Part shown: piece by piece, positions 5,400 to 61,834 of the stretch | How positions within the stretch are numbered: position 1 is the stretch's first letter | Layout: each line of letters opens with the position of its first letter | Source of the DNA: Patescibacteria group bacterium | Lineage (GTDB): Bacteria > Patescibacteriota > Patescibacteriia > Magasanikbacterales > UBA922 | DNA: 64,000 nt | Assembly: GCA_041658785.1 (NCBI GenBank) | Contig: JBAZZL010000002.1 | Location: forward strand, 1,714 to 65,713 | Direction of reading: 5' to 3' | The notes under the pieces: model-generated | What the model was told of the DNA's origin: nothing | The model's database searches: none | The model's input: only the letters and a program-made list of their open reading frames with translations | Translations under genes and position numbers: made by a program

Positions 5400-5474
5400 T
5401 CTGCGACCGCCCGACAACTCATCCTCTGTCTGGCAGTTAATCCGAGCGATGGTGCTCCAACTTTCTCTGGCGGT

Positions 5475-5680: not shown

Positions 5681-5867
5681 GCCCTGGGAAACAGAGAGAT
5701 TGTCGAGCCACCACCCACCCCCTGTTTGCACCGCCCAATGAAGGTATTTATAAATTCATCTCTTATGGTACTGCCCGCGACACCTCATCCCCTGCCCTTC
5801 TCCTAAAAGGAGAAGGGAGACGAAACAAACTCCTCCTTCTCCTAAAGCAGAAAATACCACAAAATAT

Positions 5868-8109: not shown

Positions 8110-8322
8110 ACCTCAGGCTGTTGATGAAAAAATCATACCAAAATAAAAACCCAGTGTCAAGAGCAGACACAGGGTAATGACTCCAAACCATCAATCACTA
8201 ATATGGTTCCACACAATCTTTCGGTCTTCCGATCTTTCAGTCTTTGACTCTCGATCTTCAACATTTGGGTATTGGCAATTGGAAATTTTATTAGGTGAAT
8301 TAGAAATTAGGTGAATTAGAAA

Positions 8323-15497: not shown

Positions 15498-15610
15498 ACG
15501 AAATTATACGGAATTATACAAAATTGGACAAAATTTTTTTTAATTTATTTTAATTCTGTTCAATTCTTTATAATTTCGTTTAATTTTGTATAATTCCCTA
15601 CAACCTCCTA

Positions 15611-16773: not shown

Positions 16774-16890
16774 CGATTAGTTAATTGGTTTAATAGTTTA
16801 AGGGTGCGGACAGGAACTACTTATCTTAATACACACACTATCAAACCAATCAACCAATAAACCATTAAACTAATAATCATAACCAAATCT

Positions 16891-19623: not shown

Positions 19624-22014
19624 ATGAAGACATTAGTTATCGTTGAGTCCCCCACCAAAGCCAAAACAATTTCTAAATTCCTCGGCGCGGATTATACCGT
19701 GGAATCTTCTTTTGGCCATGTGCGCGATCTGCCAAAAAGCAAGATGGGGATTGATATTGAAGGCGGCACTTTTGAGCCAAAGTACGTTGTCTCGCGCGAA
19801 CGCGGTAAAAATGTAAAAAAACTGAAAGATTTGGCAAAAAAAAGCGATGAGATTATTTTCGCTACTGACGAAGACCGCGAAGGCGAGGCCATCTCCTGGC
19901 ACCTTGCTTATCTATTGGATATTGATCCGGCCAAAGCCAAAAGAATCGTCTTTCACGAAATTACCAAGCACGCCATAGATGAAGCGCTAAAAAATCCCCG
20001 ACATATTGACCAGCATCTAGTTGATGCGCAGCAAGCAAGGCGCGTTCTTGACCGGCTGGTGGGTTATGAACTCTCCCCTCTTTTGTGGAAAAAAGTGGCG
20101 CGCGGGCTATCTGCCGGGCGCGTGCAATCGGTCGCGGTTCGGCTGATTGTGGAACGGGAACGAGAAATCCAAAAATTCAAATCCGAAGAGTACTGGACGA
20201 TTGAGGGTATTTTTAAATCAATCAACAAACAGCAATCTCAGACACAGACGGATCCGCCTCTGGCGGAAACAATCAACAATCAGTTTCTGGCAATCCTCCA
20301 TTCAATTGACAATAAAAAACTTGACAAATTTGATCTAAAAACAAAAGCGGACACTGATAAAATTTTGACTGATCTAGACGGCGCTAGTTATTCAATCTTG
20401 AACATTGAAAAAAAAGAAGTCAAGAGAACTCCGCCTCCCCCGTTTACCACCTCTTCGCTTCAGCAAAATGCCCACAACGCGTTTGGCTATTCGGCTAAGC
20501 AAATTATGCGCCTCGCTCAACAGCTTTATGAGGGTGTTAATCTCGGCGCGGAAGGGCATGTCGGACTCATTACTTACATGCGCACCGACTCCTTTAACCT
20601 GTCGCAAAAATTTCTAAATGAAACCAATGCTTTTGTTAAAAAAGAATATGGAGATAAATATAGTCTGAAAAAACCGCGTTTTTACAAAACCAAATCAAAA
20701 GGCGCCCAAGAAGCTCACGAGGCCATTCGGCCAACTGACCCGGCTCGCGCTCCCGAATCAATCAAACAATATCTTGACCCGCAACAATATAAACTTTATT
20801 CCCTAATCTGGCGCCGCGCCGTCGCCACCCAAATGGCCGAAGCACGGTTAAACAAAACCACGATAGACATCAACACGACAACACGACAACACAACAACAC
20901 GACAAACACACCTTCGTATCTATTCAGAGCGTCTGGGCAGATTATGTTGTTTGACGGCTGGCTAAAGCTCTATCCGGACATGATGAGAGAAGAAATGCTG
21001 CCAGAATTAACTAAAGAAGAAAAGCTGAACTGTAAAGAATTAAAACCCGAACAGCACTTTACCCAGCCCCCGGCCCGTTATTCAGATGCCACACTCGTTA
21101 AGGCGCTTGAGGAATTTGGCATTGGCCGGCCGTCTACTTACGCGCCGACGATTTCCACGATTGAAGATCGCGGCTATGTCTTTCGCAATGAGGAAAAACG
21201 GCTCCAGCCGAACGACATCGCTTTTATCGTCAATGATCTTTTGGTAAAACATTTTTCCCAAATTGTTGATTTTCAATTTACCGCCAAAATGGAGGAGCTG
21301 TTTGACGACATAGAAAATGGCGCCGCCGAATGGCAGCCGGTGATAAAAGATTTTTACGGACCTTTTCATCAGACAATTGAAACCAAGACCGCGGAATTAA
21401 ATAAACAGGACGTGGTGCAAGCGAGAGAAATCGGCATTGACCCCAAGACCGGCAAACCCATTTCCGCCCGCGTCGGCCGCTATGGCCCCTTTGTTCAACT
21501 GGGGACAAAAGACGACGAAGAAAAACCCCAATTCGCTTCGCTGGAAAAAGGCATGAGTGTGGAAACCGTAACGCTTGAACAGGCGCTAAAACTCTTGTCT
21601 TTACCGCGCACGCTGGGGACTGACGCGGAAGGAAACGAGATAATCACTGACCAAGGCCGTTTTGGACCGTATGTAAAGATCAATAAACAATTTTTTTCAA
21701 TTAAACCCAAAGATCCCTACACCATCACACTCGCCGAAGCCCGGGAAATCATCAAAGAGGGGGAAGAAAAAAAAGCCAACAAAACGATCAAAGAGTTTCT
21801 CGGCTCCGACATTAAAGTGCTGAACGGACGCTATGGGCCGTATGTGACGGACGGAAAAAAGAACGGCAAAATCCCCAAAGATATCACTGACCCGGCGGCC
21901 ATGACGCTCGCGCAATGCGAAGAGATAATGAAAGATGCCAAACCGCCAAAAAAAAGATCTCGACAATTGATTAGATATATAAATAAGACCAAAAAAGGAC
22001 AATTGGTTGCATAA
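19624..22014 (+). CDS. topA: DNA topoisomerase I with low-complexity insert
   Basis: Toprim start MKTLVIVESPTKAKTI. Active-site region and C-terminal Zn-ribbon-like repeats. Insert INTTTRQHNNTTNTPS from (ACACGACAAC)n at 20870-20910. Confidence 0.9.
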   Translation: MKTLVIVESPTKAKTISKFLGADYTVESSFGHVRDLPKSKMGIDIEGGTFEPKYVVSRERGKNVKKLKDLAKKSDEIIFATDEDREGEAISWHLAYLLDIDPAKAKRIVFHEITKHAIDEALKNPRHIDQHLVDAQQARRVLDRLVGYELSPLLWKKVARGLSAGRVQSVAVRLIVEREREIQKFKSEEYWTIEGIFKSINKQQSQTQTDPPLAETINNQFLAILHSIDNKKLDKFDLKTKADTDKILTDLDGASYSILNIEKKEVKRTPPPPFTTSSLQQNAHNAFGYSAKQIMRLAQQLYEGVNLGAEGHVGLITYMRTDSFNLSQKFLNETNAFVKKEYGDKYSLKKPRFYKTKSKGAQEAHEAIRPTDPARAPESIKQYLDPQQYKLYSLIWRRAVATQMAEARLNKTTIDINTTTRQHNNTTNTPSYLFRASGQIMLFDGWLKLYPDMMREEMLPELTKEEKLNCKELKPEQHFTQPPARYSDATLVKALEEFGIGRPSTYAPTISTIEDRGYVFRNEEKRLQPNDIAFIVNDLLVKHFSQIVDFQFTAKMEELFDDIENGAAEWQPVIKDFYGPFHQTIETKTAELNKQDVVQAREIGIDPKTGKPISARVGRYGPFVQLGTKDDEEKPQFASLEKGMSVETVTLEQALKLLSLPRTLGTDAEGNEIITDQGRFGPYVKINKQFFSIKPKDPYTITLAEAREIIKEGEEKKANKTIKEFLGSDIKVLNGRYGPYVTDGKKNGKIPKDITDPAAMTLAQCEEIMKDAKPPKKRSRQLIRYINKTKKGQLVA

Positions 22015-30703: not shown

Positions 30704-30870
30704 ATCTTATCAATTCACCTAATTCATCTAATTGTCTAATTCACCTAATAAAAATTCCAATTTCCAATTTAAAAAATATTAACGTAGAGCAACTGGAATG
30801 TTTGGCATTATCTTATTTGAAATTTTATTAGGTGGATTAGGTGAATTAGACAATTAGGTGAATTTTCAGA
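30697..30870. repeat. ~40-bp inverted repeat arms (TTAGGTGAATTAG family) flanking a heptamer-containing core
   Basis: Arms aattcacctaattcatctaattgtctaattcacctaat / attaggtggattaggtgaattagacaattaggtgaatt. Related copy at 8285-8325. Confidence 0.5.
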
Positions 30871-30871
30871 C

Positions 30872-32644
30872 TTACTTTTTCTCTGTGATCCTTATTCCCA
30901 ACTCCTCCAACTGTTTCTTATCAACTTCCCCCGGCGCGCCAGTCATCACCTCTTCCGCCTGCTGATTCTTCGGAAACGGCACCACCGCGCGGATGTTTCT
31001 TTCGTTCAATAAAACCATGGCCAGCCGCTCAATACCAGGAGCAAATCCACAGTGCGGCGGAGCGCCGTATTCAAACGCGTCAATCATGTGGCCGAACTTT
31101 TTATCAACTTGCTCTTTGGAATAACCGGCAATGGCAAACGCCTTATACATTATTTCCGGATCTTTATTTCTAACCGCGCCGGAGGATAATTCAAAACCAT
31201 TGGCAATAATATCGTACTGCTCCGCGATAATTTTTAACGGATCTTCTTTTTGGAGCGTCTCAAGTCCTCCCCGCGGCTGGGAAAACGGATTATGCCCGAA
31301 GTCAATCTTTTTAAACTCTTCATTGTACTCGTACATGGGAAAATCCACAATCCACGCCCAGGCAATCATGTTCGGATCTTTTAAATTCATTTTCTCTCCC
31401 ACCAATTCTCGCACCGCCCCCAGCGCTTTACAACTCACTTCCCATTTATCAGCAACAAAAAACAAAATATAATTCTGTTTAATTTTGTTTAATTTTGTCA
31501 AATTCTTTAATTCTTTCAAATGCTCTTCACTAACAAATTTAGAAATCCCGCCATCTAACTTCCCATCAATAACTTTAAACCACGCCAACCCCTTGGCATG
31601 CGCGCGAACAGCCGCGTCCAAAAATTCGCCGTCCAATTCGCTCCGGTTGAAACTTTCGCCGCCGGGAACAATCAAACAACGAACGTATTCGGCATTTTGG
31701 AAGACCTTAAAATCCGTCCGCTTAGCCCACGCGGTAACATCGGTTAATTTTAAATCAAACCTCAAGTCCGGCCGGTCGCTCCCGTAGGTTTCCAAACATT
31801 CTCTGAACGGAATGCGGGGAAACGGCTTTTGCAAAACTTTTTTGCCCGCCACTTCCTCGGTGAGGCCGATAAACAATGGCTCCATTTCCTGAAAAAATTC
31901 TTCCGGCGTCAGAAAACTCGTCTCCACGTCCAATTGATAAAATTCACCGGGAGAACGATCGGCCCGCGCGTCTTCGTCGCGCATGCAGGGAGCAATCTGG
32001 TAGTATTTATCAAAACCCGCGACCATCAATAATTGTTTATACTGTTGCGGCGCCTGAGGCAAAGCGTAAAACTTGCCCGGGTGGATCCGGCTCGGCACCA
32101 GATAATCCCGCGCACCCTCGGGCGATGAAACCGTCAGAATCGGCGTGGCAATATGCGTAAACCCGCGCCCATCCATATAGTCGCGGATGTACTTCTCCAT
32201 CTTCGCCCGGAATAAAATATTATTTTTCAACTGCTCCCGCCGCAATTCCAAATAACGGTATTTCAATCGCAACTCTTCATCCTCTTCTCCCTTGCGCGCG
32301 TCAAAAATTTCAAACGGCAATGTTTTCGCCCGGCTCAAAATTTCCACCGCGCTCGCCGCTAACTCAATCTCGCCCGTGGCTAATTCCTTGTTTACCGTCT
32401 TCGCCTCGCGTTTTACCACTTCACCCGTAACTTTGATAACATACTCGTATTTTAACTCTTCGGCCGCGGCGTAATTTCCGGTCTTCTCCGGACTAAAAAC
32501 CACCTGCGTAATCCCATACCGGTCCCGTAAATCAACAAAAATCAAGCCGCCAAACTTGCGCCTCTTATGCACCCAGCCGGACAAGGTTACTTTTTTCCCG
32601 GCGTGTTTTTTAGTTAATTCTCCGCAGGTGTGAGTTCTATACAT
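30872..32644 (-). CDS. aspS: aspartate--tRNA ligase (bacterial type)
   Basis: 590 aa. Class II motifs 2/3 (FRDE, GLDR). GAD insertion domain. Short repeat-derived stretch at 31460-31500. Confidence 0.9.
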   Translation of the reverse strand: MYRTHTCGELTKKHAGKKVTLSGWVHKRRKFGGLIFVDLRDRYGITQVVFSPEKTGNYAAAEELKYEYVIKVTGEVVKREAKTVNKELATGEIELAASAVEILSRAKTLPFEIFDARKGEEDEELRLKYRYLELRREQLKNNILFRAKMEKYIRDYMDGRGFTHIATPILTVSSPEGARDYLVPSRIHPGKFYALPQAPQQYKQLLMVAGFDKYYQIAPCMRDEDARADRSPGEFYQLDVETSFLTPEEFFQEMEPLFIGLTEEVAGKKVLQKPFPRIPFRECLETYGSDRPDLRFDLKLTDVTAWAKRTDFKVFQNAEYVRCLIVPGGESFNRSELDGEFLDAAVRAHAKGLAWFKVIDGKLDGGISKFVSEEHLKELKNLTKLNKIKQNYILFFVADKWEVSCKALGAVRELVGEKMNLKDPNMIAWAWIVDFPMYEYNEEFKKIDFGHNPFSQPRGGLETLQKEDPLKIIAEQYDIIANGFELSSGAVRNKDPEIMYKAFAIAGYSKEQVDKKFGHMIDAFEYGAPPHCGFAPGIERLAMVLLNERNIRAVVPFPKNQQAEEVMTGAPGEVDKKQLEELGIRITEKK

Positions 32645-34340: not shown

Positions 34341-34399
34341 TCACCTCCCCAGCCCCGCCGCGTTGTTGCGGTCTGGTTGCTCCCCTCTTCGGTGGTAAT

Positions 34400-34604
34400 C
34401 CGACAACTCTATCCCTGTCCCTTTCCCTTATGAAGGGAAAGGGAACCCATTAAGCGGGTTCAACTAAAATTCAATCATTAGGTCATTTCCCTTTAGAAGA
34501 GAAAGCGCGGCCTAACGATTGAATTAAGAACAAACCCTCTTAACGAGTCCTCCTTCCCTTCATAAGGGAAGGAGACAGAGGATGAGTTGTCGGGCTACCG
34601 CCAG
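34400..34604. repeat. ~205-bp foldback (MITE-like) element, copy 2
   Basis: About 93% identical by eye to 5475-5680. Confidence 0.6.
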
Positions 34605-34702
34605 AGAAAGGCAGAGGATAGATTATTGGGCTACCGCGAAGAAAATTTAAACCGCATTCGTTCAGTTTTCAACCTATCAACACCCCATCCCCCTTATCCA
34701 CA

Positions 34703-38070: not shown

Positions 38071-38158
38071 GAAACTAGAAATTAAAAACTGGAAACTGGA
38101 AACTGGCTGTAAAACAATAATTTCCAGTTTCTAATTTCTAGTTTCTAGTTTCCTGATT
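38071..38158. repeat. palindromic array of heptamer repeats (GAAACTG/GAAATTA vs TTTCCAG/TTTCTAA)
   Basis: gaaactagaaattaaaaactggaaactggaaactgg ... tttccagtttctaatttctagtttctagtttcc. Confidence 0.6.
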
Positions 38159-38165
38159 TCCCAAG

Positions 38166-38570
38166 TTAAACAGAAGACTTCCACAGCCCATGCAAATTGC
38201 AATACGCCCTCGCCTCAATTACCTTGGAGCGAGTATGAAAAACCGCTTCCGGCTTATCGCCCGGCTTCAAAAAGACCCTGCCGCGGCGATTATCTTCCAG
38301 CACAATTTCAATCCATTCAATATAATGTTTTTCCTCCATTGGATGTTCTTCCGAGCCCACTTTAACTTTCACGCCATCGCTCACTTTGCACTCATCGGCC
38401 GGCAAGATTTCAATCACCGGTACGTGCTTTTCTCGCGACGCGTCTACCGTATTTTCGGCTTGCAAGACCATGGGCTGGCCGCAACAAACCAGCTCCCCCG
38501 CTCCGGCGTGCACCATCTCCACGATGTTGCCGCAGATATTGCATTTGTAAACTTGATTTAATTGAGTCAT
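38166..38570 (-). CDS. dfx: desulfoferrodoxin (2Fe superoxide reductase)
   Basis: N-terminal desulforedoxin CxxC...CC. C-terminal SOR His/Cys ligand set. Confidence 0.8.
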
Positions 38571-38720
38571 AGGTAAAATTTTTTAGTGTTTTTTGAATAA
38601 TTCGTTAGATTATTAATCTGTATATCTGGATTAAGTTTATTACAAATAGAGTGTGCGGTCAAGTTATGGTATAGCGGCAACCACTGAACGGGGTTTAATT
38701 TCTTATTTCTTATTTCTTCC

Positions 38721-38830
38721 GCAATAAGCGGGATCCCGCCCCGCAATGGAGTCGAGTCCCCGTTCGCTGCGGGGCTCGCTGCCACCGCCACAGCGGGGCC
38801 CCGTCTTCTTTGCGGGGCGGGACAATTTCT
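38721..38830. repeat. GCGGGATCCCGC-centred hairpin-rich repeat element (full copy A) flanked by TTTCTTA heptamers
   Basis: About 70-nt core shared with 63907-63980. Partial copies at 8922-8956 and 50741-50768. Confidence 0.55.
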
Positions 38831-38873
38831 AATTTCTTCAATCATATTTCTATTTATTTCAACCTATTTCTTG

Positions 38874-41574: not shown

Positions 41575-41760
41575 CTTCTGCCAAAAATTTCTCGTCAAAT
41601 ATGGAAATCTCCGGTTTGGCTTTGTCCTTCATGGCAAAAATATAGATCACTCCTTCGGCGGAAATGCTCTGAGAAACTAATTTGCGAATGGCCGACTCAA
41701 TTTCCGGTCCAATCTCGCCGCCAGCAGTAACTATCCTTAACCTTCTAACATCTTTTGATT
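41575..41760 (-). pseudogene. possible relic of type I restriction enzyme HsdR C-terminal region
   Basis: Minus-frame translation ...IGPEIESAIRKLVSQSISAEGVIYIFAMKDKAKPEISIFDEKFLAEVMKC* resembles the HsdR C-terminal ..DDEFLAEV.. segment. Only about 60 codons survive, with no start. Confidence 0.3.
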
Positions 41761-42678
41761 ATACTTCGCCAATTCCAAACGAACTTTCCGCTCCATTTCT
41801 TTATGCGAAACATCGCCGGCACTACCCAAAATCTCTTTATCATTCAAAATCAAAAAGCCGTCAAGTTTTTTTATCCAGTCCTTCATATACATTACTCTTT
41901 GTTCCACGCTCTGCAATTCAGCGAAAGAAAGAAACTGTTCCACCAATAAATTTAATCGCTTTAACTCCAACTCCTCTAAATAATTTTTGGCGATTTCGGC
42001 CTGCTCGCGGGTGATAATTTCACCCTTCCAATTTGTTAAACCCAGATTATCTTTTCGGCTATCAACCCTGCTGTGGACAATTTCCGCCGCAGTTAAACCG
42101 GTAATCGCGTAATGAAATTTATTCTGCACAATAGCAAAGAATTGCTTGGCGTAATCCAATTTTGGATTATAATCCGCACTCAAAGCAAACACATCTTTCA
42201 CTTTTTGATAAAAATTGGCTTCGGAGGTTCTAATTTTGCGAATGCGCTCTTCCAATTCTTGAAAGTACGGCTTGGCCACTCGCCCGCTCTCCAAACGCTC
42301 ATCATCCATGACAAAACCCTTAATTATATACTCTTTCAACTTTTGGGTGGCCCAAATACGAAATTGCGTGCCACGCAAAGAATTGATCCGATATCCAACA
42401 GAAATTATCGCGTCCAAATTGTAGTGTTTAACAAGGTAATTTTTACCGTCGGCGGCAGTTACCGAGTATTCCTCGGCAACTGAATTTTCGCTAAGTTCGG
42501 CTTCTTTAAATACATTCTTCAAATGCAAACTGATATTATCGGCGCTACAATCAAAAAGCTCGGCCATTTGCTTTTGCGAAAGCCAAACGGTTTCATTTTC
42601 CATCTTTACTTCAATCTTTGTCTGCCCGTCTTCGGTGTTGTAGATGATGATTTGGTTGTTTTTATTTGGGGCGTGCAT
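41737..42678 (-). CDS. rhuM: RhuM-family protein (virulence/RM-associated DNA-binding protein)
   Basis: Characteristic N-terminus IIYNTEDGQTKIEVKMENETVWLSQKQMAELF. 313 aa. Confidence 0.7.
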   Translation of the reverse strand: MHAPNKNNQIIIYNTEDGQTKIEVKMENETVWLSQKQMAELFDCSADNISLHLKNVFKEAELSENSVAEEYSVTAADGKNYLVKHYNLDAIISVGYRINSLRGTQFRIWATQKLKEYIIKGFVMDDERLESGRVAKPYFQELEERIRKIRTSEANFYQKVKDVFALSADYNPKLDYAKQFFAIVQNKFHYAITGLTAAEIVHSRVDSRKDNLGLTNWKGEIITREQAEIAKNYLEELELKRLNLLVEQFLSFAELQSVEQRVMYMKDWIKKLDGFLILNDKEILGSAGDVSHKEMERKVRLELAKYNQKMLEG

Positions 42679-42743
42679 AAATCACTTCTTACTTTCAACG
42701 TCGACGGAATTTGTGCCAGCGTTAGCTAGTGCGCCGCTTAAAA

Positions 42744-43910
42744 TTATTTTGCCGTCCAATTTCCAGCTTCGTCAAAATTTTGTGATCGTTTGAAACCGCA
42801 AGCATTCCAAATTAGGTCAAACATCGGACGCAAAATATCTTTTGGCTCTGTATTGTATGATTCGATAATTGTTTCCGGCAATTGTAAAATATCTCGATCA
42901 ATTTTGTAATGATCATGATGCCAAAATATTTCGTCAACGCCCATTTCCCAATCTTTAACCCAAATCAGTGTCAAAAAAATAACAATCGGCATATTAACGC
43001 CAAGCTGTTTTGCTAAATTCAAATATTCCGCCAACGATTTTATCAACTCCAACTCATAGGTAAAACTTGGAATAATTTTTTTCTCTCTATCTGCTCTTAA
43101 TATTAAACCTTCAACAGCCTCAATAATTCCATTTCGGTATAACTGAATGTATGAATGGGATTTATCGTTTTTTCCACCAGAATAAGACAAAACGCCTTCA
43201 AGATTAATCCGATGGCTCAAGCCGGAAGCGTATATCGGCTGTAATTTTGCAGGTACATTTATTATCGGGTTCAAATCAATGCTATGATTCGGACTAAAGG
43301 ATCCTAATGGTATGAGATGTAAAACGATTTTACCGCCCTCGTAAAATGGAAGCGGTAAATTATCAGCAACAAGTTGGGCAATTCTTTCTACTTTGAATTT
43401 ATTTATTTGCTCGGTTAGTGTTTGAGAAAGATTAAAAGCATTTTTTAATTCGTTCGTATCCAGCGCGTATTTTCCGGCGGAATTTCTTGAATAAAATTTG
43501 TCATGTCCTTTGTAAATAACGCGGTGCGGTCCCGCCCAGCTTCTATTTATTCGGAATATAAAAACATTCTTTTTGTCGGAAACATTGACGGTTCGTGTCG
43601 CAAAAATAATTCTCGGCTCAATTCCGTCTCGAATAATGTTTTCATATTTTCTGATTTCCTCATCAACATTTTCTATTTCCACGCCATCAATACTTTTCGG
43701 ACTTCCGTTTTCTTCCGAAATGCCGAAAATCAAATCCCCGCCGGAAGCATTAGCAAAAGATGAAATATCAGCCAAAAATTCTTTTCTGTCTGCGTCGGAA
43801 TTACTCGGTAATAATTTTTTATATTCAATTGTTTTGCCTTCTAAAACAGCGTTGCTTCGCAACTGCTCTAAATCATTAAATTCAATTTTATCAAGATGTT
43901 TATTTATCAT
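42744..43910 (-). CDS. AlbA_2/Schlafen-like putative DNA-binding domain protein
   Basis: E..IEYKK....L...ISSFANASGGDLIFGI matches the AlbA_2 signature. Sits between rhuM and hsdS. Confidence 0.55.
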   Translation of the reverse strand: MINKHLDKIEFNDLEQLRSNAVLEGKTIEYKKLLPSNSDADRKEFLADISSFANASGGDLIFGISEENGSPKSIDGVEIENVDEEIRKYENIIRDGIEPRIIFATRTVNVSDKKNVFIFRINRSWAGPHRVIYKGHDKFYSRNSAGKYALDTNELKNAFNLSQTLTEQINKFKVERIAQLVADNLPLPFYEGGKIVLHLIPLGSFSPNHSIDLNPIINVPAKLQPIYASGLSHRINLEGVLSYSGGKNDKSHSYIQLYRNGIIEAVEGLILRADREKKIIPSFTYELELIKSLAEYLNLAKQLGVNMPIVIFLTLIWVKDWEMGVDEIFWHHDHYKIDRDILQLPETIIESYNTEPKDILRPMFDLIWNACGFKRSQNFDEAGNWTAK

Positions 43911-43914
43911 AAAA

Positions 43915-45276
43915 TTACCCTAAAATCATTTGTTCTATTTCTTTTTGCGCTCCGGCGACAGTGCTTTCCGCTTCTTGCCGCAAGCGTTTTACTTTTTTAT
44001 AAATTGTATTTACGCCAGCGATAATTTTTTCTTGTTTTTCAACGCTGGGCAATGGCACGACTAATTTTTTCAATGCGTCATAATCCAACGCTGGGCGCGT
44101 GCCACCCGTTGTGGAGCGGAAAGATAATTCACGACCAATTTTTGTATTGAAAAAAGACGCTACATATTCGGGCAATATCTTTGTTTTCCCCACTTCGTTT
44201 TGCAAGTGAAAACGGACAGAGTGCTGATTGATATTTCCCTCAAAATTATCTGGCACAACTGCAACGCTTCCAATTCTTCCCGTGATAGTAAAAATTAAAT
44301 CGTCTTTTTTCAACTGCGAACGCTTAAGCATTGTTTCGTGAATTTCTGGTTTGATAAATTTTACATCGTCAAGTTTTATTCCCATTTCCGTAATATTCTG
44401 TACTCGCAAGAATGGCACGCCGCCCTCGTCCGAATAATAATCACCCGTAACTTTTGGCGTTGCTCCACCGGACATATCGGCTATGGCTTGGCCAAGCGCA
44501 AAGTGTTTTTTATTTTTAATCTGCTCCAATAAACTACGCAGGTATGGTTTGTAAAATAAAGCGTCAATACGACCCTCAATTTCATCGCTCCAAATCTGAA
44601 ATACCCGCTCTGCCCCCCCCCGCGGCATATCTATACCAAGCTCGCCCAAAACAAAATCGTCAATTGAGGACAAAATTTTCAAAATTTCCGCTTGTTTCTT
44701 TTTCTTTTGTTCGTATGCTTCTTGAATTTTCTTGACGACTTCGTTTTGAACCGAAAGAGGCGGAATGGGAATATCAAAATTCTTTATTGTTTCAATTGTT
44801 ATATTTCCTTGAATTGCGCCGATTTTTTCGCGCTCAATCAATTTTCGGCTCGCTTCACTGTTTAGCCACGCGGAAATATATTGTTTGTTGATTTTGGTAT
44901 TAAGACAAAACTTAATCATAAAAGAGCCGAAGGCAAATCCTTCCGCCTCTTTCGGAACGACAACGACAATACCAACCGAGCCGCTTCTTGAAATAAGTAG
45001 GTCGCCCTCGTGAACAATCGCTTTTCCTACTTCTTTGCGTTGTTCTTCGGACAAATAAACAACATCGCCCACATCAATCCCGTCATTTTTCAAATTGAGA
45101 ATACGCAAAAACGGTATTCCAAAATCAACATAATCGTTTGCCGTAGAAAGTCCGTAGCGAATATCGGTAATAAAATCGCCGAGTTTTTGCGATTTATATT
45201 TCCCGTTTTGAATCGCTTTTTGAAGCTCGCGGATTGCCGGTAACCAATATTTCGCGTCAAGCCGTCCGCCGCTCAA
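43915..45276 (-). CDS. hsdS: type I (or IIB-like) restriction-modification specificity subunit HsdS, two target-recognition domains
   Basis: LLISRSGSVG and TITGRIGSVAVV TRD cores. Central and C-terminal conserved helices. TTG start. Confidence 0.8.
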   Translation of the reverse strand: MSGGRLDAKYWLPAIRELQKAIQNGKYKSQKLGDFITDIRYGLSTANDYVDFGIPFLRILNLKNDGIDVGDVVYLSEEQRKEVGKAIVHEGDLLISRSGSVGIVVVVPKEAEGFAFGSFMIKFCLNTKINKQYISAWLNSEASRKLIEREKIGAIQGNITIETIKNFDIPIPPLSVQNEVVKKIQEAYEQKKKKQAEILKILSSIDDFVLGELGIDMPRGGAERVFQIWSDEIEGRIDALFYKPYLRSLLEQIKNKKHFALGQAIADMSGGATPKVTGDYYSDEGGVPFLRVQNITEMGIKLDDVKFIKPEIHETMLKRSQLKKDDLIFTITGRIGSVAVVPDNFEGNINQHSVRFHLQNEVGKTKILPEYVASFFNTKIGRELSFRSTTGGTRPALDYDALKKLVVPLPSVEKQEKIIAGVNTIYKKVKRLRQEAESTVAGAQKEIEQMILG

Positions 45277-46426
45277 AACATCGCCGCTCCAAGTTGTAAA
45301 AATTTCGAGCGAAGCCGAGCTCTTTTTGCTTTCTCACTTCATCAAGAGCGTGCAAAAGAAATCCGCCCGAACCGCAAGCGGGGTCAAGCACAAGATCGTC
45401 ATTTTTTATATTCATCATCTTGACGGCGAAGCTCACAATTTCGCGCGGAGTAAAGTATTGTCCGCTTTTGCCCTTGAAAAAATCCTCCATAAACTGCTCA
45501 AAAGCAACGCCTTTTGTATCAAGATCGGTTTTATTGAGCGACACGCTTTGCAAGTGTTCAACGACGGTATAAAGCTCCTCTGGCTCGATTTTCAAACTTT
45601 CCTTAAACACTTCGGGGTCTTTTTCTTTCGCTTCAAGATAAATTTCGTTTATGCGCCGATAAACGCTTTCGGCTTTTTCGTGCGTCTTGATTTGAAAATC
45701 GTAATACTCGCCGGTTTTTCGTCCGCGCTTTTCGTCGCGAATTTTTACGAAAATGATTTTGCAAAGTTCGTCAAAAGCAACGGTTGGATTTCTTTTGCCA
45801 CCAGCCCAAAGCGTATTATGGGATTTTTCAAGGGCGCGTTTTAATTCTGATTTATCAAGCACTTTCAAATCCCAGTCCGGATCGCCTTTTTTGTAACGAA
45901 ACTCCTCAATCTTTCCGTAAGAAATAGGAATATCGGTAATGGTCGCTTTTTCCGGTTCTTTGTCGTTCCATTCGGCGGTTTCCATTGCTCGGCGAGTATT
46001 GCCCGCAACGCAAATCGCAAGCGGGGCGTGAAGCACGCGAGCGTTAGCGATTGCCTGTTTGGTGGCTTGCTCAAATTCCGCGTCGGAAATGCCGTCTTTT
46101 TTACACTCAACGACGATATAAGGTCTCTTTTTTGCGTCATCCTCATAAATAACTATGTCCGCGTAGCGTTCCGGCGTCCGGTCCGGCATCTCTATTTCAA
46201 GCTCAATCCGTTTTGCCGGATAGTGATATTTTTCAATCAGGTCAAAATAATATTCGGCGCGGACTTTTTCTTCGGGATCAGTAAAATTATATTTTTTACC
46301 AGAAGCCGAATATTTAATTTTACTGCCATCAAACACAAAGTACCCTCTGTTTTCACCAATTTCTAAATAATCATTAAAACTACTCGTGCCCCCATCTTGT
46401 TGTGGTTTATAGATTGTGTCAGTCAT
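45257..46426 (-). pseudogene. truncated RM subunit: N-terminal PD-(D/E)xK nuclease-like domain fused to an N6-adenine MTase that stops just after motif I
   Basis: D..IVIY...IVVECKK nuclease-like motif. MTase motif X QYFTPREIV and motif I LDPACGSGGFL are present. The ORF ends about 30 aa later, with no NPPF/NPPY motif IV, and overlaps hsdS. Confidence 0.55.
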
Positions 46427-46481
46427 ATTTTATTTATAATCCCAATTTTCCCCGTCAGCTTGCTGCGGGGTCGTCGTTTCA

Positions 46482-46733
46482 TTAATACACCTCCTGCCGA
46501 TGCCCAATTTTAACCACGATCACCAACAGCTCGTGTTTATAAATTTTATAAATAATTCGGTACGGCCAAACCCGCACGGAATATTCTCCGGCGTGCTCGC
46601 CTGTCAGCTTTTTACCCTGAAACGGATCTTGCCCCAATAATTTCAGCGCCAAAGCGACGCGGATTCGGTATCGGGAATCAATTCTGGCGAGATCTTTTTG
46701 CGCTTTTTTTGGGAGAACCACGGCGTACGCCAT
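46482..46733 (-). CDS. relE: RelE/StbE-family type II toxin (start at MAYAVV)
   Basis: YRIIYKIY..ELLVIVVKIGHRQEVY C-terminal signature. Confidence 0.7.
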   Translation of the reverse strand: MAYAVVLPKKAQKDLARIDSRYRIRVALALKLLGQDPFQGKKLTGEHAGEYSVRVWPYRIIYKIYKHELLVIVVKIGHRQEVY

Positions 46734-47037
46734 ACTTCTTTTTACCTTTATCGGCGATGAGAAAACCCTCTTTGGCCAGGTATTCGTCCAAAGTGATGTA
46801 ATCGCCTTTTTTATAATCCCTCTCCGCTTCTTCAATATCCTTTTTCAAATCCGGAAAGTCCTTCATCACCTCCAGCGTTTCTACCCACGATTCAAATTCT
46901 TCGGCCGACATCATTACCGCTTTGGGGCGGCCTTTTTCCGTCAGGGTATAATAAACCCCCGGCTTTTGCACTTCTTTGGCCAGGTCAAAAATTCTTTTTC
47001 TCGCTTCGGATATCGGTAAAGTATTTCTGGTATTCAT
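46678..47037 (-). CDS. Phd/YefM-family antitoxin; C-terminal ~20 codons overlap the toxin start
   Basis: Phd/YefM core VYYTLTEKGRPKAVMMSAEEFESWVETLEV. T8 homopolymer at 46703-46711 lies inside the 56-nt overlap. Confidence 0.6.
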   Translation of the reverse strand: MNTRNTLPISEARKRIFDLAKEVQKPGVYYTLTEKGRPKAVMMSAEEFESWVETLEVMKDFPDLKKDIEEAERDYKKGDYITLDEYLAKEGFLIADKGKKKYGVRRGSPKKSAKRSRQN

Positions 47038-47102
47038 AAAAGTTTTTAAGTATTTATATGTACATAATAATGTACGCTACAAATTTTGTCAAGCCGATAT
47101 TA

Positions 47103-47765
47103 TCAACAATGCCCCAGCTTTTTTAAACTGGCGTAAGAACCATTTGACACAATCACATGATCCACAAGCTCAATCCCCAAAATTTTCCCCGCTTCGATCA
47201 AACGTTTGGTAATCTTAATATCTTCTTCCGACGGTTCCGTCTCTCCGGAAGGATGATTGTGCGCCACAATCACTTGCGCGGCCAAATGCCGGACTGCCGG
47301 CTCAAATACTTCGCGCGGATGAACGAGATTGGCATTAAGCGAACCGACCGAAACGATTTCACGCTTGATTTCTTGATTTCTGGAATCCAAAAAGAAAATT
47401 ACGAAATGCTCTTTTTTATGATCACGGATATCCTTGAGTTCGTCCCAAACATCCTTTGGCGATAGAATCAAAACTGATTGTTTGTTTTGCAAATGACGGC
47501 GACCAAGTTCGTAGCAGGCGACGATTTCGCACGCTTTCGCGCTACCAAGACCGAATGTATTTTTTAATTCTTTAACCGAGGCCTTGGCCAAACCAACGCC
47601 ACTGAATTTCCTTAAAATCTTACTGGATAATTCCACGACATTTATGCCTTCGCTTCCGGTGCGTAAAAGAATCGCCAAAAGTTCGGAATCCGAAAGCCGC
47701 TCGGGACCGTATTTTTCCAGCTTCTCCCGCGGCCGATCAATTTTGGGTAAGTCCTTTATTTTCAT
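47103..47765 (-). CDS. radC: RadC-family JAB/MPN domain protein
   Basis: HNHPSG..PS..D JAMM motif. N-terminal HhH region. Confidence 0.85.
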   Translation of the reverse strand: MKIKDLPKIDRPREKLEKYGPERLSDSELLAILLRTGSEGINVVELSSKILRKFSGVGLAKASVKELKNTFGLGSAKACEIVACYELGRRHLQNKQSVLILSPKDVWDELKDIRDHKKEHFVIFFLDSRNQEIKREIVSVGSLNANLVHPREVFEPAVRHLAAQVIVAHNHPSGETEPSEEDIKITKRLIEAGKILGIELVDHVIVSNGSYASLKKLGHC

Positions 47766-47800
47766 ACTTATTTATTTGGCGATTTCCTTTAACATCTATT

Positions 47801-48496
47801 TTATTTTTCACTTTCTGCTCTGGCTTTGAACAAAAAAATGGTTTCTGATTTTAATTTCGCACGCGCCCAATCTTTCTGTGGTTCGGATAATGACTCCCCT
47901 AAACCGACCAATAAATTGCGATCCGCCATTTTTTCAATCTGATCAACGCATTTTTGCAACGCTTCTTTGAAAGAAACACCGGATCGCCTTTTAACTATTT
48001 CCTTGTTAATCGGCCAATTATTTTTCAAAAAGTACCAGACATCATAAATATCGCGGCTAGTCTTTCCGATACGCTCTAACATCGCCATTAACTTATGGGC
48101 AAACATATCCTCGGGAATCATAACCAACATAGAAATACCCAATAGGGTCTTTACTTCAAACTTTGATCCGAAATCCCGTCTGTTAACTTCTATTTTGATG
48201 TTTTGTGATTTAGTGTCATACGAGATGACAATTAGCAAATTGAATTTTTTGATTTTTGAATCTATGACCTTGCCATAGCTCTCCGCAATTTTTTGGATTT
48301 TCTCAAAGACCATTTGCTCTTTGCTTTCATCCAATAAATCAAAATCCAAATCAAACGAATCTCTATTCAATCCATAGAACAAGTGAGCGGCCGTTCCGCC
48401 TTTGAATCCTAAATATGGAGAGATGGAAGTATTGGAATAAATATCCTTTAGGATTTGCAATAATATGTTTTTATGCTTGGAGTAATCAACGGTCAT
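47801..48496 (-). CDS. AbiEii/AbiGii-family nucleotidyltransferase toxin
   Basis: GGTAAHLFYGLNR.S.DLD nucleotidyltransferase motif of the AbiEii (DUF1814-like) family. Confidence 0.65.
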   Translation of the reverse strand: MTVDYSKHKNILLQILKDIYSNTSISPYLGFKGGTAAHLFYGLNRDSFDLDFDLLDESKEQMVFEKIQKIAESYGKVIDSKIKKFNLLIVISYDTKSQNIKIEVNRRDFGSKFEVKTLLGISMLVMIPEDMFAHKLMAMLERIGKTSRDIYDVWYFLKNNWPINKEIVKRRSGVSFKEALQKCVDQIEKMADRNLLVGLGESLSEPQKDWARAKLKSETIFLFKARAESEK

Positions 48497-49092
48497 ACGT
48501 TTGAATTTTTATAGTTTTTAAAATAATCATTAACCCTCTTTTCCATTTTTTTGTTATTGTAGATCGGCAAAATTTGAAACACCTTGTCCCAATTCAAGCC
48601 GTTTAAATTATCAAAATGATAGTCTTTGCTTATATATATCCTGTCCAAAAACGCTCTCTCTTTTGTAGCAACGGCTATGCCATTTTGATGTTCGATGCCA
48701 ATAGTGTTACTCAATACGTAATCCTTCATGCGGATTAAGGAAATTTTTTGTTCGGGAATTTCAATCTCTCGGGTCACATACGATGCGACAAAAATAGAAT
48801 CGTAGTACTGAAAATTAATTCCGGCACGGGTCAATACCGTTTCAAAGCTGATGTATGAGGGAGTATAAATGCGCGTCACCAATTCAAAACGATCATAATT
48901 TTTATCTTTGGCATATATGCCGCGCCGGACCCTGATTAATTTTCCAGCGTTAACATATTTAATTAATCGGCTGGCTACGGTCTGCTCTTTTTCTTCTCCC
49001 CACAACAAAGCCACGTCTTTTGTCGAAAAGACGGCCCGAGGAGATCGCAATAAGACCTCTAAATATTCACCTTTGGTGGGTTTTTTATCCAT
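48493..49092 (-). CDS. AbiEi-family antitoxin/transcriptional regulator (type IV TA)
   Basis: N-terminal wHTH. 4-bp overlap with the AbiEii gene. Size and order typical of AbiEi-AbiEii. Confidence 0.55.
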   Translation of the reverse strand: MDKKPTKGEYLEVLLRSPRAVFSTKDVALLWGEEKEQTVASRLIKYVNAGKLIRVRRGIYAKDKNYDRFELVTRIYTPSYISFETVLTRAGINFQYYDSIFVASYVTREIEIPEQKISLIRMKDYVLSNTIGIEHQNGIAVATKERAFLDRIYISKDYHFDNLNGLNWDKVFQILPIYNNKKMEKRVNDYFKNYKNSNV

Positions 49093-49609: not shown

Positions 49610-50404
49610 TCATGAATTAAGCCTCTTGTCAAATTTCTGCCAGTCAAAAATTTTTCTCTCACTGTGAAAAACCGTGTACTCTTGCACTAAATTATGCAAT
49701 GAATCCGCCTCATCCCCCTTAAATTTCAAATTATTAATTAACTGCCAATCCCCCTCCAAAAGCAATCGTAAATTCTTCGCCTGCTCCGCGTTACAATTCA
49801 AAATCCGTTCCCCCAATTTTTCTTTTTTCTCCCGGCAAACTTTACAAATAACCCCTCCCCCAGCCGGATACAAATCCGCTATTTCTTCAATCCCGCACAC
49901 CACACAGATCTTTAGCTCCGGCGCAAAACCTAAATAATTTAGTAATTTAATGATAAAACCATCCACCAGTACAGGCGCATTGCAATGCGCCTCAACTAAC
50001 GCATTGCAATGCGTCTCAACTAACGCATTGCAATGCGTCTCAACTGAAGCAATAAATTCCAACCAACTTTTCAACAAATCAAAAATCCTCTCCTCCCTTT
50101 CTCCTGTATGCGTTAATTTATCAACCACAGAAACCAGATAACTGGCAGCTAAACTTTTCTCAGCATTTTTTCTAACGCTTGAAAAAAACTCTACCGGCTG
50201 TACTTTGGTCAGATGATCTATTTCCTTGCCTTTTTCCACCACGATATCAACCAAAGAAAACGGCTCAAGATGAGCCGAATTTTTGCTGGTTATTTTTTTC
50301 ACTCCGCGCGCGAGCAGTTCAAGCTTGCCTTGATCTTTCGTGAAAAGGGAAATGATCTGGTCTGACTCGCGGAAATCTCGCCGGGATAATATAATTGAAA
50401 GCAT
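49610..50404 (-). CDS. recO: DNA repair protein RecO with 24-nt x3 in-frame tandem repeat
   Basis: N-terminal OB fold. CxxC...CxxC zinc motif. Repeat VETHCNAL x3 at 49970-50045. Confidence 0.8.
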   Translation of the reverse strand: MLSIILSRRDFRESDQIISLFTKDQGKLELLARGVKKITSKNSAHLEPFSLVDIVVEKGKEIDHLTKVQPVEFFSSVRKNAEKSLAASYLVSVVDKLTHTGEREERIFDLLKSWLEFIASVETHCNALVETHCNALVEAHCNAPVLVDGFIIKLLNYLGFAPELKICVVCGIEEIADLYPAGGGVICKVCREKKEKLGERILNCNAEQAKNLRLLLEGDWQLINNLKFKGDEADSLHNLVQEYTVFHSERKIFDWQKFDKRLNS

Positions 50405-50459
50405 ATAAGCATAATAAGCAATAAGCAGAGTAAGCAGTAAGTATCCGTGCTTACTTTGC

Positions 50460-50879
50460 TTATTGCTTACTCTGCTTACTCTGCTCCAAATATGATTGCA
50501 GAATCACCATCGCCGCTTTCTCATCTCTACTCACCGTTCCTCCCATCGCATCCGCCTGCCTCGAAGTAAACCTCTCGTCAACGAATTCAATTGGTAAGTC
50601 AATTCGTTTTTTTAATTCTTTCACGAACGCTTGAACAATTTTTGTGTTCTCATTCTCTTTTCCATCCAAACCAATCGGCAACCCCACGACAATTTTATCT
50701 ATCTTTTCTTTGGCAATCAAATCTGAAATCTGTCCCGCCAAAACGGGATCCCGCTCGCTGCGGGAAATTCTGAAATCTGAAATCAAAAATTGGCCAAATG
50801 GCAAAACAACCCCAAGGCCAGTCTCCACCCAAGCCAATCCAATATTTTTTCTGCCGTAATCAATGCCGAGTATATTCAT
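50460..50879 (-). CDS. ruvX: YqgF/RuvX-family Holliday-junction resolvase-like nuclease, with in-frame GGGATCCCG element
   Basis: MNILGIDYGRKNIGLA N-terminus. Insert at 50741-50768 encodes RSERDPV. Confidence 0.85.
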   Translation of the reverse strand: MNILGIDYGRKNIGLAWVETGLGVVLPFGQFLISDFRISRSERDPVLAGQISDLIAKEKIDKIVVGLPIGLDGKENENTKIVQAFVKELKKRIDLPIEFVDERFTSRQADAMGGTVSRDEKAAMVILQSYLEQSKQSKQ

Positions 50880-56999: not shown

Positions 57000-57015
57000 A
57001 ATATTTTACACTTAA

Positions 57016-57212
57016 TCACTTTAACACTTTAGCACTTTAACACTTTAGCACTTGAGCACTTTAACACTTTAGCACTTGAGCACTTTAACACTTTAGCACT
57101 TGAGCACTTTAACACTTTAGCACTTTAGCACTTGAGCACTTTAACGCTGAGGCACTTTTCCAATTTACTTGGGAATAAATCGTGCTAAAGTGCTTCAGTG
57201 CTAAAGTGCTTA
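57016..57212. repeat. 24-nt tandem array (CACTTTAA-CACTTTAG-CACTTGAG, ~5.5 units) with inverted tail, between rpsZ and rpsH
   Basis: Direct units 57016-57150. Inverted copies 57182-57212 can pair back onto the array. Confidence 0.7.
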
Positions 57213-57219
57213 GGCGATT

Positions 57220-57971: not shown

Positions 57972-57974
57972 ATT

Positions 57975-58045
57975 AATCTAGTTCATGGTTCTCAGCCAAT
58001 AGCTATTAGTTATTTTGCAAAATTTTATTGGCTACAAATTATTGG
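57975..58045. repeat. imperfect palindrome of TAGTTCAnGGTTCnCAGCCAATAG family
   Basis: Related to 61752-61828. Confidence 0.4.
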
Positions 58046-58066
58046 CTTTGAACTGCCGGCTTAATC

Positions 58067-58488: not shown

Positions 58489-58538
58489 ACCAATTTCCAA
58501 TTTCCAATTTCTAATTTCTAATTTCTAATTTCCAATTA
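58489..58538. repeat. heptamer tandem array (TTCCAAT/TTCTAAT)n in rplN-rplX spacer
   Basis: ccaatttccaatttccaatttctaatttctaatttctaatttccaatt. Confidence 0.65.
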
Positions 58539-61244: not shown

Positions 61245-61245
61245 A

Positions 61246-61366
61246 TTTCCAATTTCCAATTTCCAGTTTCTAATTTCCAATTTCCAATTTCCAGTTTCTA
61301 ATTTCCAGTTTCTAATTTCCAGTTTCTAATTTCCAGTTTCTAATTTCCAATTTCAATTTAATTAAC
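61246..61366. repeat. heptamer tandem array (~17 units of TTCCAAT/TTCCAGT/TTCTAAT) in rpsS-rplV spacer
   Basis: Longest array of the family in the window. Confidence 0.7.
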
Positions 61367-61407: not shown

Positions 61408-61749
61408 TTATTTTACTTTACTAGCAGTATTGGCAGTATTAACAGCGCTGGCGGTGCTCGCAGCGCCGGCAGCGGTCTGTTCCTTCGCTATCCTGCCTCC
61501 ATGAACTGTAAATTTTCTGGTTGGTGAAAACTCGCCAAGTTTGTGCCCAACCATATTTTCATCGGCAAAAACATCAATAAAAGAACGGCCATTGTGTACG
61601 GCAAACGTCATCCCCACCATCTCTGGTGTAATTGTGCTGGCTCGAGACCAAGTCTTGATCGGTTTTCTATCTTTTGTCGCTTTTGCCGCAGCAATCTTTT
61701 TTATCAAATTTAAATCAACGTATGGACCTTTTTTAAGACTTCTTGACAT
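61408..61749 (-). CDS. rpsS: 30S ribosomal protein S19 with Ala/Thr-rich C-terminal extension
   Basis: Core S19. About 20 extra C-terminal residues. Confidence 0.85.
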
Positions 61750-61751
61750 AT

Positions 61752-61828
61752 TTACTAGTTCATAGTTCAGAGCCAGTAGCCAATAGTTTTGAACCCCATT
61801 ATTGGCTATGAACTATTGGCTCTGAACT
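61752..61828. repeat. imperfect ~75-bp palindrome (TAGTTCATAGTTCAGAGCCAATAG family) in rplB-rpsS spacer
   Basis: Both halves are reverse complements with few mismatches. Confidence 0.4.
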
Positions 61829-61834
61829 AATAAT

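Follow-up and report, generated by a model that had tools for sequence, protein, structure and literature searches.

How does a genome of the candidate phyla radiation (CPR, or Patescibacteria), a group whose genomes are regarded as streamlined and repeat-poor, come to carry tandem arrays of short repeats between its ribosomal protein genes and within the reading frames of conserved enzymes? The question is raised by a 64 kb stretch from a Patescibacteria group bacterium of the Magasanikbacterales (contig JBAZZL010000002.1, assembly GCA_041658785.1), referred to here as the window, in which a first-pass annotation described a dispersed family of heptanucleotide arrays, the largest of them lying in front of the gene for ribosomal protein L22. 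We argue below that these arrays are probably the arms of small palindromic elements which would have been copied between sites and then resized by slippage. [quoted passage not shown]

Genomes and Array Detection

The window and its flanks were the sole part of the genome examined. Arrays were called with Tandem Repeats Finder (TRF), those scoring at least 40 being counted, and 20 dinucleotide shuffles provided the null expectation. Comparisons were made with three independently assembled strain variants about 99.5% identical to the window, L044, L045 (JGI) and L047 (ENA), with the sister genomes L130, L131 and L132 for the junctions of the ribosomal protein operon, and with the relatives L041, L042, L128 and L129 for radA and recG, the identities of which were confirmed by Pfam. 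Among RadA homologues the window groups with Patescibacteria, adjoining Candidatus Magasanikbacteria. The negative controls, 119 unrelated loci amounting to 1.58 Mb, originated from a scan of genome contigs for L22, which contributed distant phyla only, and from a metagenome scan based on RadA alignment, for which the matches listed were mostly relatives at most 55% identical and served as controls only. Rfam, run over the window at gathering thresholds, detected three tRNAs only, and there is no rRNA in the window.

Abundance and Recurrence of the Arrays

The window carries 11 arrays of period 7, seven each of periods 8 and 9 and four of period 10, whereas the shuffled sequences yielded means of 0, 0, 0.15 and 0.1 arrays for periods 7, 8, 9 and 10, respectively. 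Their density is 3.75 per 10 kb; in the control loci the median is 0 and the mean 0.77. Moreover, the same units recur at different loci: 50 links were observed, whereas random units gave 18.8 on average and never more than 35. The core GAAACTG/TTTCCAR family is represented by eight arrays at six loci. Given this excess over shuffles and controls, and the recurrence of units, the arrays are a genuine, non-random feature of the window, and their units are not confined to heptamers but range from 7 to 10 nt. All six heptamer sites proposed in the first-pass annotation are present (4401-4429, 30755-30770 and the arrays starting at 9478, 38071, 58490 and 61245 in Table 1) and the view of a dispersed family holds, but the co-occurrence of 8-, 9- and 10-nt units means that it is not specifically heptameric.

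A typical array contains about 4.3 units (29-35 nt). Arrays occupy 13.3% of intergenic bases as against 1.3% of coding bases, and several operon spacers consist of 67-89% array; by count from the array table, about 45% of the arrays are nevertheless intragenic. Heptamer pairs also turn up sporadically in unrelated metagenomic bacteria. In a control locus from Gracilibacteria (L036, 3417-6654), three arrays of a single 9-mer, GGTAGAAAC, occur in direct orientation, with about five copies each and about 1.5 kb apart, which suggests that other CPR lineages carry array families of their own.

Cassettes, Hairpins and Solo Arms

Some of the inverted arrays enclose a gene. A GxxExxY gene in the window lies between fully complementary array arms (Table 1), and L042 and L128 lack this cassette at the der-pth junction. 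In the strain variant L044 a four-helix-bundle gene (TIGR02436, 23S_rRNA_IVP; S23p) is located between inverted arms of the 9-mer ATTAGGTGA at 4344-4846, and a second gene of this family (TIGR02436) lies between 52-nt heptamer arms at 16647-17126 in L129, both cassettes being situated between protein-coding genes and not in helix 25 or 45 of 23S rRNA. Other inverted pairs contain no gene and, when intergenic, form long near-perfect hairpins with folding z-scores ranging from -5.6 to -9.2, while the unpaired arrays give +1.8 and +2.7. The heptamer site at 30755-30770 is internal to such a hairpin (30705-30867), and the one that fills the Pth-DprA spacer has its counterpart in L128 in a direct overlap of the two genes.

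Single arms also occur alone. The solo arm at 8277-8325 is matched at 49 of 49 nt by L129 13119-13167, an in-frame stretch of the RecG interior with unrelated flanks, although the RecG proteins of the two genomes are just 68% identical and their GC contents differ (0.43 and 0.36); one of the six frames of this 49-nt element is open. A core, TTTTATTAGGTGAATTAGA-AATTAGGTGAATT, is common to the arms of the L044 cassette, to both arms of the 30705-30867 hairpin and to the solo copies (alignment A5). Within L129, the insert at RecG site 3 reproduces 45 of 48 positions of the left arm of that genome's own cassette (score 81, shuffle maximum 31). Two families found in ribosomal protein spacers behave similarly: the octamer family (AGCACTTG) occurs at S14-S8 in the window and as an L23-L2 hairpin in L131, while a composite TGGCTAYTGGCT..GAACYAWGAACTA..TAAT-ATG element is located ahead of S19 and L5 in the window and, in L131, ahead of L5 and S8; neither gave a hit in the 1.58 Mb of controls. 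The inner arms of the 9-mer element carry core-family heptamers (AATTGGA) and the families are, therefore, physically linked.

Since arms that match exactly or almost exactly are found at unrelated positions in distantly related genomes, local slippage cannot be their source, and the alignments indicate that the arrays are modules of palindromic elements which appear as stem-plus-ORF (open reading frame) cassettes, gene-less hairpins and solo arms. The features shared with MITEs are terminal inverted repeats, small size, the lack of a transposase and the presence of multiple related copies.

Two palindromic structures of another kind were seen. One, an element of about 215-234 nt, does not consist of tandem units; its two copies (5467-5681 and 34386-34607) are about 92% identical, with arms of 92 and 75 nt that are 77% complementary, and one copy lies just downstream of radA. 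In L042, a gene for a DUF559 protein (Vsr-like endonuclease) at 2992-3437 is placed between 36-nt GC-rich inverted arms, again without tandem units, directly after radA, and is thus a further case of a stem-loop cassette with a small gene of nuclease type.

Table 1. Tandem arrays and array-containing elements of the window (coordinates refer to the 64 kb stretch; z, folding z-score).
Position	Strand	Feature	Units	z	Remarks
4349-4429	+	RadA in-frame hairpin insert	(GAAACTG) x4.4 ... (CCAGTTT) x4.1	-3.4	encodes LKLETRNLKQEEKTLASTPVSSFQFPIS
4640-4671	+	second in-frame RadA insert, private	7- and 9-nt repeats		SLSVNQDYPLSVSPVS; 16-aa clean gap in 5LKM
8277-8325	+	solo arm of 9-mer element			overlaps recG stop codon
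8905-9012	-	RecG site 3, composite insert	(TGTAACT)2.4, 32-nt GC-rich mini-hairpin core, (TAACTTG)2.1, (TCCGGCT)5
9478-9508	-	RecG site 2, core-family array	sense (GAAATTG)4		EIGNWKLEIG
10136-10165	-	RecG site 1 array	TTGTTTC x4.3		NKKQETRNK; wedge domain
14434-14945	+	stem-plus-ORF cassette	34-nt ATACGAA-type array arms, 100% complementary		GxxExxY (TIGR04256 / PDDEXK_3) gene 14496-14906
15486-15603	+	inverted arrays, hairpin	10-nt units	-7.7	fills Pth-DprA spacer
16843-16876	+	intergenic array	AAACCAAT x4.2		unit common with 18606-18641
18292-18641	+	three in-frame Mur ligase arrays	ATCACGT, CACTTCAG, AAACCAAT
20871-20911	+	topoisomerase I in-frame octamer array	CAACACGA x4.4
30705-30867	-	gene-less hairpin	outer arms ATTAGGTGA 9-mers, inner (TTCCAAT) x2.3	-5.6
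31470-31516	-	aspartyl-tRNA synthetase (AspRS) in-frame arrays	10-nt and 8-nt units
38071-38153	-	inverted arrays, self-complementary hairpin	core-family heptamers	-7.8	gap between desulfoferrodoxin and class II aminoacyl-tRNA synthetase
50399-50485	-	inverted arrays, hairpin	8-9-nt units, AAGCAATA / TGCTTACTC	-9.2	spans RuvX stop and RecO start
57005-57219	-	octamer hairpin, S14-S8 spacer	(TTTAGCAC/CTTGAGCAC) x17.5 paired with (GTGCTTAA) x3.9	-8.2
57972-58066	-	L24-L5 spacer element	TGGCTA/GAACTA family
58490-58537	-	unpaired core-family heptamer array	6.9 units	+2.7	begins at L14 stop codon
61245-61359	-	main heptamer array, 115 nt		+1.8	fills S19-L22 spacer; ends at L22 ATG (61244-61242)
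61750-61834	-	L2-S19 spacer element	TGGCTA-type hairpin		end = GAACTATGAACTAGTAAAT-ATG

Arrays in the Ribosomal Protein Operon

The S10-spc ribosomal protein operon occupies 50-64 kb of the window on the minus strand. On its sense strand the main array consists of ten TGGAAAT and five TAGAAAC units together with two degenerate units, and the earlier estimate of about 17 units agrees with the TRF value of 16.6 x 7 nt, although a 14-nt period gives a better fit (8.3 units, 92% match). As RNA, both this array and the one following L14 are unstructured, and they share one sense orientation. The array was also said to have been mistaken for the N-terminus of L22 by the ORF caller; this is true of the 146-aa JGI call (P0121) but not of the 134-aa ENA call.

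The spacer element at 61750-61834 is homologous to that at 57972-58066 and to two spacers of L131, and the motif of this TGGCTA/GAACTA family gave no hits in the 1.58 Mb of controls. Arrays terminate 0-14 nt from start codons, and the motif GAACYAWGAACTA..TAAT-ATG is kept before L5 in two genomes and is also found before S19 and S8. Shine-Dalgarno motifs are nearly absent upstream of the 72 gene starts in the window and the leaders are A/U-rich, which implies that the host uses Shine-Dalgarno-independent initiation. Scans of the operon for promoters and terminators gave results close to those for shuffled sequence, and the hairpins formed by arrays do not have the character of classical GC-rich terminators.

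In the sister genomes these junctions are mostly minimal. S19 and L22 are separated by 163 nt in the window, by 3 nt in L130 and by 8 nt in L131, and they overlap in L132; the L14-L24 junction measures 148 nt in the window as against 6, 84 and 6 nt in L130, L131 and L132, respectively, and the S14-S8 junction 220 nt as against 7, 87 and 5 nt. The minimal junctions thus indicate that the operon arrays are lineage-specific insertions. Within the operon proteins themselves, the S5 tail contains an in-frame array with a non-triplet unit. S19 carries a C-terminal tail of 21 aa (61411-61473), encoded by a degenerate stretch with 9-nt periodicity, which is missing in the three sister genomes.

In-Frame Inserts in Conserved Proteins

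The radA array, described earlier as a single array, is present but constitutes one half of an inverted pair (4349-4379 and 4401-4429), which adds 25 aa relative to the structure 5LKM. The peptides attributed to the arrays, VSSFQFPISSLQ in RadA and EEIGNWKLEIG in RecG, are indeed read from them. One and the same RadA loop contains four different repeats in four lineages, and the inserts of the window and of L041 are homologous, with arm units that have been homogenised differently. An AlphaFold2 model of RadA built from a 15-sequence alignment had a mean predicted local distance difference test (pLDDT) score of 50, too poor for surface mapping, and the placement of inserts therefore rests on gaps relative to solved structures; within the better-modelled ATPase core, the segments scoring below 50 are the two inserts. 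The mapping of inserts onto structures, which the first-pass annotation had recommended, places those of RadA at gaps in 5LKM and those of RecG at gaps in 1GM5.

All three RecG array sites fall at such gaps, and site 3 contributes an excess of about 38 aa in the inter-lobe linker. The further heptamer arrays reported for recG were recovered, namely TTGTTTC at site 1 and, at site 3, TCCGGCT x5 (8978-9012) and TAACTTG/TGTAACT (8905-8968). At site 2 the sense array of the window is, with one mismatch, the reverse complement of the (CAATTTT)4 array that L042 and L128 carry there. The GC-rich core of site 3 has a copy of a 15-nt direct repeat, TAACTTGTAACTTGT, on either side. GC-rich mini-palindromes occur in coding sequence both here (8922-8953) and at 38734-38822, in an ORF extending from 38567 to 38845, with about 75% GC in a genome of 42%. 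The cores of site 3 in the window and of site 1 in L129 RecG are laid out alike but with a marginal score (25, shuffle maximum 21), and the likeness was not used. An additional RecG insert of 10-14 aa (GFTEVASDKSG; 9240-9300, residues about 421-436), which TRF did not flag, is missing in L042, L128, L129 and 1GM5.

Among the other proteins with in-frame arrays, the Mur ligase carries arrays in the equivalent region in L128. RecO contains a 24-nt unit repeated 2.9 times with a 97% match (49976-50045), giving VETHCNAL three times between its N- and C-terminal domains. The genes concerned had been termed essential; radA and recG are not essential in model bacteria, whereas AspRS, topoisomerase I and Mur ligase carry arrays as well.

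Comparison of orthologues places the RadA and RecG inserts at hypervariable, indel-rich spots, and relative to the solved structures the inserts are purely additional sequence. The in-gene copies are lineage-specific insertions and not conserved native sequence, contrary to the possibility, raised at the outset, that the orthologues would contain the same residues. The supposed insertion of three-unit blocks of 21 nt finds no support: arrays typically contain about 4.3 units, and the frame is kept through a net insert length that is a multiple of three. That insertions are tolerated in housekeeping proteins is borne out by the in-frame, lineage-specific inserts in RadA, RecG and others.

Strain Variation

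Relative to the window, the main array of L044 is 56 nt (8 units) shorter with an altered unit order, and its octamer array, at 57005 in the window, lacks 40 nt (5 units); over 11 kb of the operon, length differences are confined to these two arrays. The window, L045 and L047, the latter two derived from independent assemblies of other samples, agree fully in the in-gene arrays of radA and recG, which are in frame in all three. As the arrays recur in independent assemblies they are not assembly artefacts, although the exact copy number at 57005-57158 is uncertain, the octamer array (154 nt) being longer than the assembly k of 141. The earlier proposal of an active simple-repeat system is thus correct as regards activity on the scale of strains, but slippage is not the whole of it.

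A different type of variation was seen at 3112-3597, within an ORF for a T4SS-pilin/M23-like protein (1473-3929), where about 40 substitutions and a 12-nt indel distinguish the window from L045 while the surrounding 15 kb are near-identical; it looks like a diversifying segment of a surface protein. A cluster of defence or mobile type (41737-49092) encodes RhuM, a Schlafen AlbA_2 protein, a type I restriction-modification specificity subunit, a truncated methylase/HsdR_N fusion, a Phd antitoxin, RadC and an AbiEii toxin.

Comparison with Known Systems

Long simple sequence repeats (SSRs) of 5-11 nt units, dominated by heptamers, are documented in many bacteria, including Nostoc (GGGGAYT) and other cyanobacteria, as summarised in PMC4692102, which cites Mrazek 2007. 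The Xanthomonas GGGAATC repeats have a mode of about four units, about 70 convergent inverted pairs, variability between species and 7-11% intragenic copies (PMC4692102). The arrays of the window resemble them in the dispersal of one heptamer family over many loci with typically about four units, in convergent inverted pairs able to form stem-loops, in their location near the 3' end of the upstream ORF, and in the variation of length and sequence among close relatives (PMC4692102). They differ in that about 45% are intragenic, in the coexistence of several unit lengths and sequences, and in the association of the arms with gene-bearing cassettes and with identical copies in other genomes; moreover, the units are not G-rich and hence lack the potential to form G-quadruplexes. 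Of the properties of the long-unit SSR class, over-representation of tandem 5-11-nt units and polymorphism in unit number are found here, while slippage in place does not alone account for the arrays.

The TAACTGA repeats of marine Beggiatoaceae, cyanobacteria and Bacteroidetes are direct heptamer repeats within ribosomal protein operons, where they end a few nucleotides upstream of start codons without a Shine-Dalgarno sequence (PMC4679880). They share with the unpaired arrays this location, a predicted unstructured RNA and similar sense units (UAACUGA, and AACUGGA here), and a horizontal spread without a known mechanism is suspected for them, as here (PMC4679880). In contrast, TAACTGA units have stops in all forward frames and their intragenic copies lie at protein termini, whereas those of the window are compatible with ORFs and are found within catalytic domains; the window also has many inverted pairs, as against a single indirect repeat reported for TAACTGA (PMC4679880).

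The intervening sequence (IVS) in the 23S rRNA gene of Coxiella burnetii combines a stem, an S23p ORF, strain-variable heptamers and cleavage by RNase III (PMC4990558). As in that element, the cassettes have a four-helix-bundle (S23p / TIGR02436) ORF enclosed by complementary termini, which pair into a stem of about 28-50 bp, together with tandem heptamers of strain-variable copy number and the behaviour of a selfish element (PMC4990558). They differ in being placed between protein-coding genes and not in helix 25 or 45 of 23S rRNA, in arms made up wholly of tandem units, and in having gene-less and solo-arm derivatives, including in-frame copies in proteins.

Rickettsia palindromic elements (RPEs) insert in frame in housekeeping genes, and Correia elements are cleaved by RNase III (PMC10969869). 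RPEs and intragenic MITEs resemble the window elements as short palindromes in frame in unrelated housekeeping genes, at positions compatible with the fold and without a transposase of their own (PMC10969869). RPEs differ, by description, in their size of about 100-150 bp, in a conserved encoded peptide and in having no tandem arrays described; many inserts of the window measure only about 30 nt, and the RPE hosts belong to a different phylum. The tandem repeats of Borgs are likewise fast-evolving and genome-specific, occur in intergenic regions and ORFs, vary in unit number within populations and add low-complexity segments to proteins (PMC9879509). Within ORFs, the unit length of the Borg repeats is in every case a multiple of three, and the repeats are perfect, direct and unique to each locus (PMC9879509), whereas the units of the window measure 7, 8 or 10 nt, are often arranged as inverted pairs and are common to several loci. 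None of the systems compared has all of these features together: arms made of tandem arrays, the cassette, hairpin and solo forms, copies placed in frame within catalytic domains, and a host from the CPR.

Origin of the Arrays

We favour, with moderate confidence, the explanation that the arrays represent a clade-specific population of small palindromic insertion elements, IVS- or MITE-like, with arms of 7-10-nt tandem units, which were copied and then resized by slippage. Such elements would exist as cassettes around a small gene, S23p/IVP or GxxExxY (PD-(D/E)XK-like), as gene-less hairpins and as solo arms, of which the main array (61245-61359) would be an example. They would be copied to new sites, after which replication slippage may resize the arms and the units within an array would become homogenised. 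Selection would then retain only those insertions which preserve reading frame and fold, or which, in this Shine-Dalgarno-poor host, leave the following start codon preceded by an A-rich leader free of structure, and insertions would survive at gene junctions and, in their single open frame, within indel-tolerant protein loops. By analogy with Correia elements and the intervening sequences of rRNA, a probable role for the long hairpins of operon transcripts is that of RNase III substrates or of 3' stabilisers, and the unstructured A-rich arrays may be compatible with Shine-Dalgarno-independent initiation.

Several observations weigh against this explanation. No target-site duplications are evident at the copies of the 9-mer element, and a search of the window for transposase, RAYT, integrase and reverse transcriptase found none, nor is RNase III encoded there. 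For the core TGGAAAT family no cassette containing a gene came to light, and its link to the elements consists of its occurrence in the inner arm of the 9-mer element and in two hairpins. Covariation gave no support to the TGGCTA/GAACTA hairpin, with 0 of 14 pairs compensatory. The close relatives L130 and L132 are without such arrays in the same operon, and the trait is therefore patchy. As to a mobilising source, no parent insertion sequence with matching inverted repeats was found in the 64 kb and flanks, and the cassette genes are not known transposases. A scan of viral contigs for the 9-mer dimer produced no matches and hence no evidence for a phage vector.

Alternatively, each array could be an ordinary long-unit SSR, born in place by polymerase slippage and kept where tolerated, with no copying involved. 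This would agree with strain differences in whole units, with the concerted homogenisation of units, with the prevalence of arrays of about four units and with inverted pairs known also for Xanthomonas GGGAATC (PMC4692102), as well as with the sporadic heptamer pairs in unrelated metagenomic bacteria and the lack of a mobilising enzyme in the window. We consider it unlikely given the 49-nt identity between unrelated flanks in genomes with such divergent RecG proteins, the 45/48 match of the L129 RecG insert to a cassette arm, the families common to different junctions in different genomes, and a recurrence of units that exceeds the random maximum (50 links against 35). A regulatory role in cis would instead make the arrays binding sites for RNA-binding proteins (S1, Csp or CsrA-like) or processing signals that set the translation of single cistrons in operons lacking Shine-Dalgarno motifs, the in-gene copies being by-products. 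The termination of arrays 0-14 nt from start codons, the motif kept before L5, S19 and S8, the common sense orientation and unstructured nature of the unpaired arrays, and the precedent suggested for the Beggiatoaceae TAACTGA repeats in ribosomal protein operons (PMC4679880) are all in its favour; nevertheless, we consider it unlikely as well, since sister genomes run the same operon with junctions of 0-8 nt and no arrays, copy number can halve between strains, and the same sequences occur within coding regions in both orientations.

Units of 7, 8 or 10 nt, for which a change of one unit shifts the frame, could also turn radA, recG, recO and topA into contingency loci that generate hyper-recombinant or mutator subpopulations, and by our own tally roughly 8 of the 14 strongest in-gene arrays lie in genes for DNA repair, recombination or topology. 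Every in-gene array is in frame, however, and these arrays are identical in the three strain variants while intergenic ones vary; AspRS and Mur ligase, for which switching off would be lethal, carry arrays as well, and we regard such switching as very improbable. Least credible is an origin in mis-assembled or collapsed repeats: tandem repeats are error-prone in short-read assemblies and one octamer array exceeds k, as noted above, but assemblies made independently, from other samples and with other pipelines, contain the same arrays, the 115 nt of the main array fall short of k, and the in-gene arrays keep long ORFs intact.

Implications

A wider proposal, which is speculative and which we consider rather unlikely, is that heptamer and other long-unit arrays of bacteria in general are arms or remnants of one widespread class of stem-loop cassettes, with rRNA intervening sequences and in-frame inserts as landed copies. 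The cassettes would encode the TIGR02436 (S23p/IVP) and TIGR04256 (GxxExxY) proteins and may have relied on these for mobilisation. If true, the class would cover the Xanthomonas GGGAATC, the cyanobacterial and the Beggiatoaceae TAACTGA repeats and the heptamers of the Coxiella IVS, and the rRNA intervening sequences would be copies that landed in rRNA and the in-frame inserts copies that landed in tolerant loops.

For the organism itself, the arrays hold ribosomal protein cistrons that are otherwise contiguous 150-220 nt apart, and they provide RadA, RecG, TopA, AspRS and Mur ligase, all conserved enzymes, with repeat-coded loops of 10-40 residues. They can mislead gene callers, as with the 146-aa L22 call, and they offer strain-level length markers for uncultured lineages. 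Finally, the elements would tie together heptamer repeat families, intervening-sequence cassettes of the rRNA type and the abundant uncharacterised S23p and GxxExxY proteins, and through these ties the origin of each becomes testable in public genomes.

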